Shown: positions 6,826 to 15,919, numbered from the stretch's first letter. The stretch: 50,592 bases of DNA from an uncultured Nitrososphaerota archaeon (GCA_964594835.1 CAZQNA010000009.1:1-50592); one strand, 5' to 3'. The notes: generated by a model from the sequence alone, not told the origin. Translations and numbers: made by a program.

Positions 6826-6867
6826 CGCCGCGTCGGCCCCGGCCAACGATATAACTCCCCGGGCGTC

Positions 6868-6882
6868 GGCCCCGCCTTATAT
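6868..6882 (+). promoter_or_regulatory. Promoter P1: GGCCCCGCC + TTATAT
   Basis: TATA starts 27 nt before ATG 6904; same upstream 9-mer as P2 and P3. Confidence 0.75.
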
Positions 6883-6903
6883 CCCGACCGACTCCCACTG
6901 GCG

Positions 6904-7137
6904 ATGCGCGGCCTGCTGGACGCCCTGGCCTCTCCCCTGAGGCGCGGGCCGAGCCTGGCAGCCAGCAGGGAGAGGGTCAGGAGACACCTCCGGGAGGTCA
7001 TCGCAGAGATCAGGATCGTGAACCCGGCTGCCAGCGAGGCAGCCGAAGCCCTGGCTGGTCTGCTGGTCGGTCTGCTGACTGCGAGTGAGAGGGAGGCCGG
7101 GGACCTCGCGAGGCTGCTGGGGGTGACGGGCGGGTGA
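6904..7137 (+). CDS. Hypothetical helical protein, first gene of the pilus accessory operon
   Basis: Leaderless ATG below P1; GTGA overlap with the next gene. Confidence 0.6.
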   Translation: MRGLLDALASPLRRGPSLAASRERVRRHLREVIAEIRIVNPAASEAAEALAGLLVGLLTASEREAGDLARLLGVTGG

Positions 7138-7556
7138 ACGAGACCGTGGCCTACGCGATGATCGGGCTCGTGTCGGTTGCGGCCATGTTGATCTTCGCCT
7201 CCGGACCGCTGGCCGAGGCCGCCGAGAGGATCGACGACCGGCTGACCGCCGCCGGGGAGTGGTCCCTCGCCGGGGCGCTGAGCAACTGCGCGTCGGCGGT
7301 CATCGGGGGAGGCGCCTGCGAGGCGAGGGTCTTCACCCCCGTCGAGCTGGTGGTCGAGGCCAGGGGGAACCGGATCCTAGTCTGGGACAACGAGAGCCTC
7401 ACGCACTTCGCGGTCGAACTCCCGGTCGAGGTCAGGCTCCTGAACGGGGAGGTGCACCCCTGGCACCCCGGGAGTCCGGTCTCGGTGGTCAGGGGGCTGG
7501 TCTGGATAGAGGCGAGCTGGGACGACGGAGCCGTAGCCCTGAGGGTGAGCGGATAG
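7134..7556 (+). CDS. Minor pilin-like protein with N-terminal membrane anchor
   Basis: N-terminal hydrophobic helix then beta-rich domain; translationally coupled on both sides. Confidence 0.6.
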   Translation: MNETVAYAMIGLVSVAAMLIFASGPLAEAAERIDDRLTAAGEWSLAGALSNCASAVIGGGACEARVFTPVELVVEARGNRILVWDNESLTHFAVELPVEVRLLNGEVHPWHPGSPVSVVRGLVWIEASWDDGAVALRVSG

Positions 7557-7822
7557 TGAGGAGGGTCCTGAGGGAGGGTCTCGGCGCGGCTATGGGCGCA
7601 TCGGTGCTCATCAGCGCCCTGATCCTGGGGTCCCTCATCCGCGGCGTGGGGGAGGTCGCCTGGGAGAGGAGGCTTCAGAACGACCTATCCAAGCTCGAGG
7701 AGAGGTCCGATCGCCTCGGGGTGGTCACGGTCGTGAGGTACCCCTGGGGCGCCGAGGTCCGGCTGGGGCCAGCTGACGAGCCGTTCTGGGGAGGGGATCG
7801 AGGTGTCGGAGGAGGCGGCTGA
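7556..7822 (+). CDS. Small pilin-like protein with possible class III signal peptide
   Basis: MRRVLREG|LGAAMGASVLISALILG; TAGTG overlap with the previous stop. Confidence 0.55.
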   Translation: MRRVLREGLGAAMGASVLISALILGSLIRGVGEVAWERRLQNDLSKLEERSDRLGVVTVVRYPWGAEVRLGPADEPFWGGDRGVGGGG

Positions 7823-7931
7823 CGCAATCGGAGACGTCCTCTGGCCTGTTCTCGTTGCGCTCGCCCTGCTAGCCGCCGCCCTGATCGTCCTCCCAGGTCC
7901 CAGCCCGATCCCAACGGAGGTGATACCCTGA
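7803..7931 (+). CDS. 42-aa single-TM protein
   Basis: Read by hand: MSEEAADAIGDVLWPVLVALALLAAALIVLPGPSPIPTEVIP; fills the operon gap. Confidence 0.5.
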   Translation: MSEEAADAIGDVLWPVLVALALLAAALIVLPGPSPIPTEVIP

Positions 7932-8209
7932 ACCTCAGGGTGCTCTGGCTCGCCGCCGGCGTGGCGGTCCTGGCATCGGTGGCCCTCTACGCCCTCTCGG
8001 GTTGTCTGAGCCCGGGCTGGGTGGTGGCGTGCCGGGACTCGGAGGCCGGTGGGCTCGTGGACGCCCTGATCGAGGAGGGGGTCGACCTCGTGTGGGAGGA
8101 CGTGACGGAGGTGCACGGAAGGCTGAACCTCTCCTGTCCCCTCTCCGCCAGGGTGATAATCCCGCTCCCAGAGGGCCTGAACCACACCGTGGGGGTGGGG
8201 AGGGGGTGA
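7928..8209 (+). CDS. Small membrane-anchored exported protein (possible CTG start; alternative GTG 7940)
   Basis: GGAGGTGA SD just before CTG; CTGA overlap; N-terminal TM; sequons NLS and NHT. Confidence 0.55.
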   Translation: MNLRVLWLAAGVAVLASVALYALSGCLSPGWVVACRDSEAGGLVDALIEEGVDLVWEDVTEVHGRLNLSCPLSARVIIPLPEGLNHTVGVGRG

Positions 8210-13743: not shown

Positions 13744-13745
13744 GG

Positions 13746-14528
13746 CTATCCCTCCGCCAGCCTCTCCATCATCAGACGCCTCACCTCGGCGAAGTCCTCC
13801 TCCAGGGATCCTGCGGAGACCCTCGCCGGAGGGGGCGGCACCTCTGCGGGACCGCGAGAGAAGAAGTTGCGCGGAACGAGCCAAGGAACGAGCGCCGAGG
13901 TCACGCCGAGCAGCCCACCGAGGGCGCCCGTCGAGGCTGATATCAGTAGGGCGACCGCGGAGGCCGAGAGGATCACGCCCGCCGGTTCCAGGGATTTCTC
14001 TCCAGACCTGACGTAGGACCAGGCCGGCACCGCGAGGACCGCCAGGCCGGCCGCCACGGGGTCGAGCCTCAGGGCCCACCATGATCCGATGACTGGCTTG
14101 GGGGGCATCGCGAGTGAGGAGGCCGCCCCCATCGCCGCAGCGTATCCCGAAAACCTGAGTATGGATCGGGGGGACTTGGAGTACCCTCGCCTCCACGCCA
14201 GACAGACGCTGACGAAGTCCGAGAAGCCAAACACCGCGGGGACGAGGAGTGAGGTCCTGACTAGGAGGTCTACAATCAGGTCGCCGTAGGATAGGCCAGA
14301 CAGGGTGCGGGCGTACATCATCCCAAGGGCGCCCGCGCTGGAGAAGGACAGGAGGTAGCTCACGACTCCGCCGACCGCGCCTGCCAGGATCGACTCTAGG
14401 GGGGAGCCAAGTGGCTCGTAGGGGACTGGGGGTACTGACTCGAGTCGAGGCCCCGATGACAGGATCCCGAGCGCCGCCGCGAGGTAGGCCCCGGTGATTA
14501 GCTCTAGATCCCTCCTGCGCCAGCCCAC
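13746..14528 (-). CDS. Hypothetical polytopic membrane protein
   Basis: Several hydrophobic segments; directly follows the MinD-like gene. Confidence 0.65.
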   Translation of the reverse strand: MGWRRRDLELITGAYLAAALGILSSGPRLESVPPVPYEPLGSPLESILAGAVGGVVSYLLSFSSAGALGMMYARTLSGLSYGDLIVDLLVRTSLLVPAVFGFSDFVSVCLAWRRGYSKSPRSILRFSGYAAAMGAASSLAMPPKPVIGSWWALRLDPVAAGLAVLAVPAWSYVRSGEKSLEPAGVILSASAVALLISASTGALGGLLGVTSALVPWLVPRNFFSRGPAEVPPPPARVSAGSLEEDFAEVRRLMMERLAEG

Positions 14529-14535
14529 GGGGAGA

Positions 14536-15843
14536 TCACCACCCGTCCAGGGGTTCTAAGCCGGAGGCAAGAAGGGCAAACCTCCAGACCTCAAGCTCCC
14601 GGTCCCCCAGGTCGGCCAGGTTCACAGACCCGGCCTCCATGTAGGACTCGAGCCTCTCTCCGGAGACCCCGGCCATCTGCAGGGCGGATCTTATGACGGA
14701 GCCCCTCACCCTCCTGACCCGCCCGTCAGGATACCTGACCTCGAAGGTCCCCCCCAGAAGCCTGGTGAGTCTCTCTCGGAGCCTCGATCCAAGGCCTGAT
14801 CCGCCCGGACCCCCATCCGAGGGTTCAGGCCCGGGAGGCCGACGCTCCACCCTCTGGAGGGAGGCCCCACGGGGAGGGGGGTGGCCGGTCCCCCTCGGCG
14901 CCGTCTCGGACGCCAGAGTGTCGCTTGGCGGCTGACCGGAGAAGATCCACCTGAGCTCAGAGTCGACGGTCTCGACCCCCTCGCCCCCCTCACCCGTGGC
15001 GGGCTGGCGATCCCTCCCGGGGTCGACGGCTTGGACCTCCTTGAGGAACTCTTGAAGGGCCTCCGCGACAGCCCTGACCGGTCCGAGCCTGGGGAGGAGC
15101 CTCAGCGGGATCGAGTCGTGGGTCATCAGTCTGGCCAGCTCCGGGTCCTCCGGGAGCACCACCGGGCTCCTCCCAAAGAAGGTCTCCGCTAGGCTCTCCC
15201 ACCTGGTCCCCGTCTCATCGAAGGGCTCCGACTCTTTGAACCTGTTCAGGAAGACCGCGACGGTAGGCTTCCCCCCGTCCTCCAGCCTCCTGCTGGCGGC
15301 AGCAGTTGCCACGAGCCTCCGCCTGGACGGGGGGACCACGGCCACGGCGGCGTCGATCCACTCCGCGAGGACTTCTGAGAACTCTGCCAAGTGGGGATCC
15401 CCTGGAGGAAAGTCTACCAGAACCAGATCCGCCCCCTGTCCCTCGAGCTTTGCCCTGATCGCCCTGAGAGACTCACGGAGCTTGGATGGCGGGACTCGCC
15501 TGATCTCATTCACCTTGGAGTGGGCCCCGGGCACCACCTTGAGGCGCTCCAGACCCGGCGGCGTGGCCCTCTCGGCGCCTCCGCGCGAGAGCGCGGGGCG
15601 GGGGGTCGCAAGCGCCGCGTCGAGGTCAACCCTCCCAGCCAGGAGGTCCACAATGTCCGGGCCAGACCAGGGGCCCAGGAGCATCTTCGTCAACATCGCC
15701 TCAGTCACGTCTGCGTCGACGGCTACGACGGATCCGGCCCCTTCCCTGGGGCCGTAACAGGCGGCCAGCGCCAGGAGAAAGCAGACAGTGGTCTTACCCG
15801 CGCCGCCAGTCCCGATGACGCCTACCACCCTCGCGCCGGCCAT
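14536..15843 (-). CDS. MinD/ParA-family ATPase (TadZ/CpaE-like) with C-terminal extension
   Basis: GTGGAGKTT, VAVDAD, LVLVDFPPG, FLNR, LPED. Confidence 0.8.
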   Translation of the reverse strand: MAGARVVGVIGTGGAGKTTVCFLLALAACYGPREGAGSVVAVDADVTEAMLTKMLLGPWSGPDIVDLLAGRVDLDAALATPRPALSRGGAERATPPGLERLKVVPGAHSKVNEIRRVPPSKLRESLRAIRAKLEGQGADLVLVDFPPGDPHLAEFSEVLAEWIDAAVAVVPPSRRRLVATAAASRRLEDGGKPTVAVFLNRFKESEPFDETGTRWESLAETFFGRSPVVLPEDPELARLMTHDSIPLRLLPRLGPVRAVAEALQEFLKEVQAVDPGRDRQPATGEGGEGVETVDSELRWIFSGQPPSDTLASETAPRGTGHPPPRGASLQRVERRPPGPEPSDGGPGGSGLGSRLRERLTRLLGGTFEVRYPDGRVRRVRGSVIRSALQMAGVSGERLESYMEAGSVNLADLGDRELEVWRFALLASGLEPLDGW

Positions 15844-15863
15844 CGACGGGGGCGCTGGGGCGG

Positions 15864-15879
15864 TATATAACGCGGGGCC
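15864..15879 (-). promoter_or_regulatory. Promoter P3: GGCCCCGCG + TTATATA
   Basis: TATA starts 27 nt before ATG 15843, same spacing as P1. Confidence 0.75.
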
Positions 15880-15919
15880 GAACTGGGTGGGTAGACGGCC
15901 CGCGATCCCTCCGAGGAGG

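Follow-up and report, generated by a model that had tools for sequence, protein, structure and literature searches.

Which factor recognises the promoters of an archaeal pilus gene cluster when all of them carry the same G/C-only element beside the TATA box? The question is raised by a 50,592-nt stretch of DNA from an uncultured Nitrososphaerota archaeon (GCA_964594835.1, CAZQNA010000009.1:1–50592; hereafter the window), in which three promoters, P1, P2 and P3, share the hexamer GGCCC(C/T) at the position of the transcription factor B (TFB) recognition element (BRE). A preliminary description of the sequence had proposed that these promoters have a non-canonical motif in common where a BRE would lie, and that reading holds; what it had not noticed is that the cluster also encodes a divergent TFB, a likely reader of the motif. 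A search for sequencing runs that contain the stretch returned four DNA runs from two studies and no RNA run; one of the four is labelled hydrothermal vent metagenome.

Promoter patterns were searched for in the whole genome to which the window belongs (G000, a 1,818,972-bp assembly of 24 contigs with 65% GC). The comparison set from the same genus (g1) comprised five genomes, G000 to G004, and two metagenome contigs. Since G001 is near G004 and G002 is near G003, this sampling amounts to about three lineages with three promoters each rather than to 16 independent observations.

Three promoters with a shared hexamer

Re-reading of the sequence located the three strings at the coordinates and on the strands given in the preliminary description. 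The full strings below were read from the sequence, the hexamers were established by genome pattern search and ortholog alignment, and the TATA boxes by sequence and ortholog alignment. Positions relative to a promoter are counted from the first T of TTWTAT, which places the hexamer core at −9 to −4 and three variable bases at −3 to −1.

6866–6882, plus strand: P1, tc-GGCCCCGCC-TTATAT
6868–6873, plus strand: P1 hexamer GGCCCC (−9 to −4)
6877–6882, plus strand: P1 TATA box TTATAT
13359–13343, minus strand: P2, ct-GGCCCCGCC-TTTTAT
13352–13357, minus strand: P2 hexamer GGCCCC
13343–13348, minus strand: P2 TATA box TTTTAT
15881–15865, minus strand: P3, tc-GGCCCCGCG-TTATAT
15874–15879, minus strand: P3 hexamer GGCCCC
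15865–15870, minus strand: P3 TATA box TTATAT

All three follow a common template of GGCCC(C/T), three variable bases, TTWTAT, 21 bases and a start codon. At P1 and P3 an ATG lies 27 nt from the first T of the TATA hexamer (6904 and 15843), as had been claimed, and opens a 77-aa open reading frame (ORF; 6904–7137) and a 435-aa ORF, respectively; P2 has a GTG at the equivalent +27 position (13321). P1–P3 are the only TATA-like elements in or beside a 14-gene cluster and each stands ahead of one operon, in agreement with their description as promoters. This arrangement in the sequence is best explained if each of the three is the core promoter of one operon of a Tad-like type IV pilus cluster.

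The P2 GTG at +27 is out of the pilin frame in G000, G004 and G001, where the pilin ORF starts 8 nt later with TTG or GTG (TTG 13313 in G000), and G003 and G002 have an in-frame GTG at +28. Judged from these start codons, the pilin mRNA may have a very short leader in some species and be leaderless in others.

Chance association of a GC-rich string with three TATA boxes in a 65% GC genome would suffice for the octamer GGCCCCGC by itself, which occurs at background frequency (8 window matches against 8.02 expected; 270 in the genome). The preliminary description had remarked that other matches lack an adjacent TATA box, and only the P1–P3 octamers among the eight do adjoin one. The composite pattern GGCCCCGC[CG]TT[AT]TAT has three matches in the whole genome, all of them P1–P3 (window 6.87–15.88 kb). 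Against a background set of the 547 TT[AT]TA[AT] hexamers of G000, GGCCCCGC[CG] at the fixed offset was observed three times with 0.025 expected, so the motif, for which a failure to exceed the GC background had been named as a refutation, lies strongly above expectation. The hexamer GGCCCC at that offset was observed five times with 0.58 expected, and it is the commonest −9 to −4 hexamer among the 547 sites (the runner-up has three). When the spacer was changed to N2 or N4, the genome gave two matches and none, respectively, with none inside the cluster.

A test blind to the motif considered TATA hexamers within 10 kb of one another that have an identical upstream hexamer, with labels shuffled 2000 times. 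The pilus locus is the sole triple of this kind in the genome, and shuffling produced a triple in 10 of 2000 rounds; identical-hexamer pairs numbered six, three of them from the pilus locus, and six or more such pairs arose in 3 of 2000 rounds. Together with the conservation of the element in every orthologous promoter (below), the composite count and the lone local triple leave chance as an extremely improbable explanation. Two further sharing pairs lie on contig C8 of G000 (45132–45137 and 51785–51790), about 6.6 kb apart, with identical upstream 9-mers in mirrored orientation, and may represent an inverted duplication or the two termini of a mobile element.

Synteny of the cluster extends to the four other genus-g1 genomes, with proteins 34–80% identical by tblastn; the ParA-like protein is 42–60% identical across these genomes by genome search. 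The promoter alignment, anchored on the TATA box, contains 14 promoters, three each from G000, G001, G003 and G004 and two from G002 (72% complete), and the metagenome contigs contribute one P1 and one P2 with an identical layout. The claim of a shared motif is borne out in all of them, in that the hexamer recurs with identical spacing to the TATA box in 16/16 orthologous promoters, every time at the BRE position. The idea of a fixed offset to TATA likewise stands, with one refinement: the conserved unit is GGCCC(C/T) at −9 to −4, and the three bases adjacent to TATA vary between species. GGCCC at −9 to −5 is present in all 14 aligned promoters, of which 12 have C and two have T at −4; positions −3 to −1 read GCC, GCG, AGG, AGC or CTC, and TTWTAT is invariant. 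The start codon is at +27 in 12/14 and at +28 in 2/14. The flanks from −30 to −12 and from +7 to +24 carry almost no information, and the alignment contains neither dyad symmetry nor a wider conserved block around the hexamer. An asymmetric lone block that tolerates no change of spacing fits a single helix-turn-helix (HTH) beside the TATA-binding protein (TBP) better than a dimeric regulator.

Across the five genus-g1 genomes, the relaxed pattern GGCCCYNNNTTWTAW has 17 matches. Fourteen of them fall at promoters of the cluster, and G003 and G004 have no match beyond their three cluster sites; the reversed pattern used as a control has five. The three other matches are a pair on contig C2 of G000 and contig C16 of G001, and one on contig C17 of G000. 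At the C2:236911 site, which recurs in G001 (C16), TTTTAA lies 22 nt upstream of an opposite-strand ATG, and from its placement the match is probably the TATA box of that opposite-strand gene. The site at C17:13973 (plus strand) reads GGCCCC-N3-TTTTAT and is the only other promoter-oriented site in G000; an ATG follows 29 nt after the TATA box, and among the five genomes the site occurs in G000 alone. It precedes a small gene whose product is DUF433-like by eye, and an apparent partner ORF follows.

The ordinary promoters of the genome justify the term non-canonical. The housekeeping BREs listed in the preliminary description were recovered on re-reading (GCCAAAG for Lsm, CCAACC for tRNA-Glu, CCCAACG for tRNA-Leu and GGGAACC for tRNA-Ile); these tRNA and Lsm elements of the window belong to the CCAAC type, with A at −4/−3. 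The reference for ordinary promoters consisted of two sets of leaderless-type promoters of the genome (116 and 183), whose BRE profile is itself weak: A is enriched at −4 in both sets, and reaches at most 41% there. The hexamer lacks the A at −4/−3 that is typical of the tRNA, Lsm and genome-wide leaderless promoters. In the cluster promoters, C is invariant at −7 to −5, −4 is C or T and A occurs at −3 in 3/14, a composition that departs from a purine- or A-containing BRE consensus; the Sulfolobus consensus has A at −3 and A/G at −6 (PMC5817253). P1–P3 score at the 8th–12th percentile of the 183 leaderless-type promoters. P1 and P3 have 21 nt between the TATA hexamer and the start codon, compared with a genome mode of 23–26 nt, and a distance of 21 nt is found in 6/116 promoters, those of the cluster included.

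One explanation of these values is that GGCCCC is a weak BRE variant for the canonical TFB, with the three promoters derived from one duplicated module and the TFB paralog of the cluster either a non-reading protein like TFB3 of Sulfolobus or without a role here. The weakness of the canonical signal genome-wide is what such a reading would lead one to expect. However, a tolerated variant should recur elsewhere, yet none of the 183 other leaderless-type promoters has CCCC at −7 to −4, and the matches in the five genomes are mostly those of the cluster. The absence of flank similarity among the three promoters implies that any common descent is old and that only the hexamer and the TATA box have been held. 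We regard this explanation as rather improbable.

A second explanation makes the hexamer an operator for a conventional sequence-specific regulator (repressor or activator) whose gene lies elsewhere in the genome. Bound over the BRE, this regulator would either block or recruit the canonical TFB, and the paralog would have another role. Short non-palindromic boxes for dedicated factors are known from pilus and archaellum promoters of archaea, and the three ups promoters of Sulfolobus, with ANTTTC at −44 to −39, offer a precedent (PMC5817253). Activators of the TFB-RF1 type act at promoters with weak BREs (PMC5937170), which the cluster promoters resemble by the genome's own profile; the hexamer also reaches −9, past the usual BRE core. 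Against this, the element is 6 bp long and asymmetric with no second half-site, its distance to the TATA box is constant in all 16 promoters, an activator bound at −9 to −4 would collide with TFB, and no DNA-binding fold was seen among the cluster genes besides the TFB paralog. We consider a regulator of this kind unlikely, though by no means negligible.

A divergent TFB encoded in the cluster

The basal set in the genome comprises one canonical TFB and one TBP, which leaves few other candidate readers of the hexamer among the basal factors. The canonical TFB is a 332-aa ORF on contig C10 with two TFIIB repeats scoring 84.6 and 71.1 bits; its gene and that of TBP lie within about 1.5 kb on the same strand (C10 ~31.3–34.6 kb; L016 and L048), with a 215-aa ORF between them. 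The product of 9432–10265 in the pilus cluster is, on the evidence of its sequence and predicted structure, a second, very divergent TFB. Its gene starts 58 nt after that of an 82-aa membrane protein and has no TATA box of its own. The protein scores 24.9 bits against Pfam TFIIB (cut-off 23.6), 18.7 bits in a six-frame genome search, and far below the NCBIfam TFIIB cut-off. Its Zn ribbon, its two cyclin repeats and its C-terminal HTH can be aligned with those of the canonical TFB and of short paralogs from other genera of the family.

In the Zn ribbon, C10, C26, C29 and G30 are invariant in 12/12 aligned sequences. The g1 paralogs have Asp (CPVDG) where the other sequences have the second Cys, which leaves the g1 proteins three Cys; metal binding by the paralog is predicted. 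About 65 alignment columns of the canonical B-reader and B-linker are absent from the paralog. The AlphaFold model (predicted local distance difference test score, pLDDT, 73.8) has a short ribbon of three strands (18–34), a 17-residue linker that is of low confidence or disordered (35–51), and ten helices. A Foldseek search with this model returned 19 matches with E ≤ 0.001, of which 18 are TFIIB/TFB chains and one is a cyclin D1 complex; the best TFB cores were 1ais_B (template-modelling (TM) score 0.71, root-mean-square deviation 3.6 over 206 columns) and 1d3u_B (TM 0.66).

The second-repeat HTH of TFB/TFIIB reads the upstream BRE, and within an HTH it is the turn and the beginning of the recognition helix that read the major groove (PMC4581349). 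In the aligned HTH of the paralog, Q223 is invariant and the helices span residues 226–232 and 237 onward. The recognition helix is GKSRWRETAKLL where the canonical type is TEVTVRNRYKEL, and the HTH segment reads ...LGLGKSRWRETAKLL compared with ...AGVTEVTVRNRYKELL in the canonical protein, with a short insertion just before it. Among six orthologs of the paralog (48–68% identical to the protein of the window), 19 of the 23 HTH positions 225–247 are invariant, compared with a mean column identity of 66% over the whole alignment, and L233–W240, which spans the turn and the first residues of the recognition helix, is joint longest among the invariant stretches of the protein. An invariant reading head of this kind matches an invariant DNA element.

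These observations suggest that GGCCC(C/T) is a private BRE read by the TFB paralog encoded in the cluster, which would make the three operons an autoregulated regulon, a reading to which we assign an even chance. The hexamer would be placed where the second cyclin repeat and HTH of a TFB touch DNA upstream of TBP; the paralog, with its rewritten recognition helix, would dock on TBP-bound P1, P2 and P3, and would couple the three operons, its own included, into one autoregulated unit. Both the binding of TBP and the specific reading of the hexamer by the paralog are predicted from sequence and model. The paralog is favoured as the reader because the element is six bases long, asymmetric, G/C-only, rigidly spaced, nearly unique and present at every promoter of the locus, and because the TFB of that locus has a recognition helix that is both rewritten and frozen. 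The retention of both cyclin repeats and of a strongly conserved HTH also argues against a protein that does not read DNA, as the weak-BRE explanation would have it; that explanation can point to Sulfolobus TFB3, the one crenarchaeal TFB paralog with a link to pilus expression that has been studied, which is described as having no DNA-binding domain and acting with TFB (PMC5817253; PMC6101594, PMC6101591).

Several points weigh against the paralog as reader. The conserved block lies about 3 bp upstream of the A-rich part of ordinary BREs, and may therefore mark a different protein beside TFB. The paralog, lacking the ~65 B-reader/B-linker residues, may be unable to initiate alone. It is transcribed from P1, so another factor must fire P1 first, and the need for P1 to fire at least once without the paralog likewise favours a weak BRE for the canonical TFB. 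The two extra relaxed-pattern sites (C2:236911 and C17:13973) have no visible link to the pilus. Because motif and paralog are both invariant, there is no covariation to exploit. Finally, the pairing of the motif with an in-cluster paralog amounts to a single evolutionary event in one genus, to which genus g2 supplies one contrast and not a series.

In the two genus-g2 clusters examined, no match to the TFB paralog was found. The three promoters read there by eye, in DNA of 41–46% GC (those of the pilin and ParA genes in L020 and that of the pilin gene in L023), have TTAAATA, no GGCCCC and no obvious common alternative motif. This joint absence of paralog and hexamer counts, though weakly, for the proposed pairing. 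The homologous-protein search for the paralog, in which the 8000 candidates sharing most words were scored, returned five clusters, all at least 67% identical; the search of genome contigs gave three loci, all of the same genus, and that of metagenome contigs four contigs. None of these protein, genome-contig and metagenome-contig searches found intermediate in-cluster relatives of the paralog that could reveal covariation.

Other genera of the family have short TFB paralogs without B-reader and B-linker and with other recognition helices (L050, at G024:C4 8371–9526, and further examples in G022, G012, G009, G005 and G017). They are 24–33% identical and are not located beside a pilus ATPase; the one in G024 follows a 112-aa ORF and precedes a gene for a 568-aa membrane protein.

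If the paralog reads the hexamer, it could act as a dedicated initiation factor or as an occupying repressor that keeps the canonical TFB off, and we lean modestly towards the former. Canonical TFBs use the B-reader and B-linker for start-site selection and promoter opening. The loss of these segments is the basis of the repressor option. As an initiation factor, the paralog would hold the polymerase through its Zn ribbon, and its expression from P1 would give positive feedback. The fullest version of this idea is a 'sigma-like' system, in which a TFB without B-reader and B-linker would be the dedicated initiation factor on a private G/C-only BRE and would form a positively autoregulated on/off switch of the pilus; we hold this to be possible but doubtful. 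More speculatively, a pre-initiation complex without a B-reader may place the start site differently, which could account for the short and rigid distance from TATA to start.

Comparison with known systems

Among the regulators predicted in archaeal type IV pilus loci, TFIIB homologs (arCOG01981, arCOG05559) are the most frequent and are experimentally unstudied, according to the sections of the survey consulted (Makarova et al. 2016, PMC4858521). Those sections name no cis element, whereas here the paralog comes with a promoter hexamer that every operon of the locus has in common. In haloarchaea, BRE and TATA direct paralog-specific use of TFBs (hsp5 promoter, TFBb/TFB2; Lu et al. 2008, PMC2396416). 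The system proposed here would be similar in that core promoter elements alone decide which TFB paralog acts. It differs in that the haloarchaeal TFBs are full-length general factors with large regulons, whereas the present paralog lacks B-reader and B-linker, is encoded within a presumed regulon of three promoters and is associated with a sharp, nearly unique hexamer.

The ups system of Sulfolobus is close in outline, since three promoters of one type IV pilus locus carry a non-palindromic hexamer upstream of TATA together with weak BREs (Le et al. 2017, PMC5817253). As described there, the ups box (ANTTTC, −44 to −39) is A/T-rich, clear of the BRE and present in 214 promoter regions. The present hexamer lies at −36 to −31 from the start codon, occupies the BRE position, consists of G and C only and belongs to one locus, and is thus not of the ups type. 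TFB3 of Sulfolobus, which controls pilus (ups) and DNA-exchange genes, is likewise a TFB paralog with no normal B-reader (PMC6101594, PMC6101591, PMC5817253). In the accounts cited, it has no described DNA-binding domain and the tfb3 promoter has a separate ANTTTC box, whereas the present paralog keeps both cyclin repeats and the HTH and its gene lies in the locus itself.

Homology has been argued between the HTH of sigma region 4 and the second-repeat HTH of TFB (PMC4581349). Bacterial alternative sigma factors with private −35 elements offer an analogy, with an initiation-factor paralog, an altered HTH, a matching element and a small, often autoregulated regulon; the machinery here is TBP-dependent, and an initiation-factor function of the paralog is a proposal.

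The eukaryotic upstream BRE, a G/C-rich element directly upstream of TATA with the consensus SSRCGCC, is read by the HTH in the second cyclin repeat of TFIIB. CCCCGCC beside the TATA box at P1 and P2 resembles this consensus. The likeness, however, covers the variable GCC, and the conserved GGCCCC lies further upstream.

The association of TFIIB homologs with pilus loci (PMC4858521) and the principle of BRE-directed paralog use (PMC2396416) were thus known, and the new part is a matching cis element for a pilus-locus TFB homolog. In a literature search that was not exhaustive, we found no defined cis element paired with such a homolog and no B-reader-less TFB paired with its own BRE. The idea that alternative TFBs of archaea choose their promoters by distinct BREs, as bacterial sigma factors do by −35 elements, has been discussed mostly for haloarchaea, where TFBs are many and the differences between motifs diffuse. 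The present locus is a much cleaner case, with one TBP, one canonical TFB, one divergent TFB, three target promoters and a nearly unique, genus-invariant six-base element. If the proposal is true, it would give the TFIIB homologs of pilus loci their first cis-acting partner and show what a TFB does without a B-reader. The BRE/TFB question would become directly testable at the bench with a few recombinant proteins and short DNA fragments.

Gene content of the cluster and its surroundings

The cluster consists of 14 conserved genes in three operons within about 9 kb (6.9–15.9 kb), seven on the plus strand behind P1, four on the minus strand behind P2 and three on the minus strand behind P3.

6904–7137, plus strand: first P1-operon gene, 77-aa three-helix protein, no family match; kept in g1, 38–41% identity in g2
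7134–7556, plus strand: candidate minor pilin of 140 aa with N-terminal hydrophobic helix; GTG start overlapping the preceding stop codon
7553–8209, plus strand: two small conserved ORFs with N-terminal hydrophobic helices (~7553–7822 and ~7900–8209; starts uncertain)
8002–9129, plus strand: large conserved protein with N-terminal hydrophobic helix, no family match (start probably near 8190)
9126–9374, plus strand: 82-aa conserved membrane protein; ATGA start/stop overlap with the preceding gene
9432–10265, plus strand: TFB paralog, 277 aa, last P1-operon gene (Pfam, alignment, model and Foldseek)
10550–11128, minus strand: polytopic membrane protein, last P2-operon gene, no family match
11098–11826, minus strand: T2SSF (TadB/C, PilC)-like membrane protein, below the Pfam cut-off
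11610–13010, minus strand: T2SSE-family secretion/pilus ATPase; nearest models TrbB, FlaI, TadA and VirB11
13023–13313, minus strand: 96-aa Flp-like pilin candidate, with a hydrophobic helix behind a charged leader that ends in ...ERG
13369–13740, minus strand: third P3-operon gene, small conserved ORF with N-terminal hydrophobic stretch; stop just upstream of P2
13746–14528, minus strand: 260-aa polytopic membrane protein of the P3 operon, no family match
14536–15843, minus strand: first P3-operon gene, ParA/MinD-like P-loop ATPase, 435 aa, leaderless ATG

We call the locus a Tad-like archaeal type IV pilus from its predicted gene content, in which the ATPase alone passes a curated threshold (PF00437, 57.8 bits against a cut-off of 24.9; its NCBIfam matches to TrbB, FlaI and TadA are all below their equivalog cut-offs). 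The platform-protein candidate scores 22.0 bits against PF00482, below the cut-off of 25.2; since the orthologs align with it from residue 78 onward only, it probably starts near 11600. The pilin candidate scores 13.8 bits against PF04964 (Flp_Fap) over residues 15–47, below the cut-off of 32.2. The ParA/MinD-like ATPase would have a TadZ/CpaE-like role, and the four P1-operon proteins with N-terminal hydrophobic helices are candidate minor pilins.

The model of the 77-aa protein encoded by the first P1 gene is a three-helix bundle. This protein was considered as a reader of the hexamer and was rejected, weakly: it has no family match, its PDB matches all have E > 4, and it is present in g2, where the motif is absent. 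In the genus-g2 cluster L023 (G018:C17, ~2900–3100, minus strand), the slot of the TFB paralog seems, on reading by eye, to hold a gene with a GGGD.KL-type motif, as known from prepilin peptidases.

P1 stands back to back with the promoter of a divergent gene for a pyridoxal phosphate (PLP)-dependent enzyme (5749–6846; TATA box 6849–6854, minus strand). The gap between the two TATA boxes is 22 bp, and 26 bp in G004. From this spacing, simultaneous pre-initiation complexes on both promoters seem hardly possible, and occupancy of P1 may affect the PLP-dependent enzyme gene.

Elsewhere in the window, a seventh tRNA gene at 25997–26100 (minus strand) was missed by ARAGORN and scores 58.9 bits with Rfam; at 104 nt it probably contains an intron. 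Between the tRNA-Leu and tRNA-Phe genes lies a low-GC island (~32050–33100) with a minus-strand ORF, where a 2-kb bin has 52% GC compared with ~65%; its composition and position suggest an insertion of foreign DNA next to a tRNA gene.

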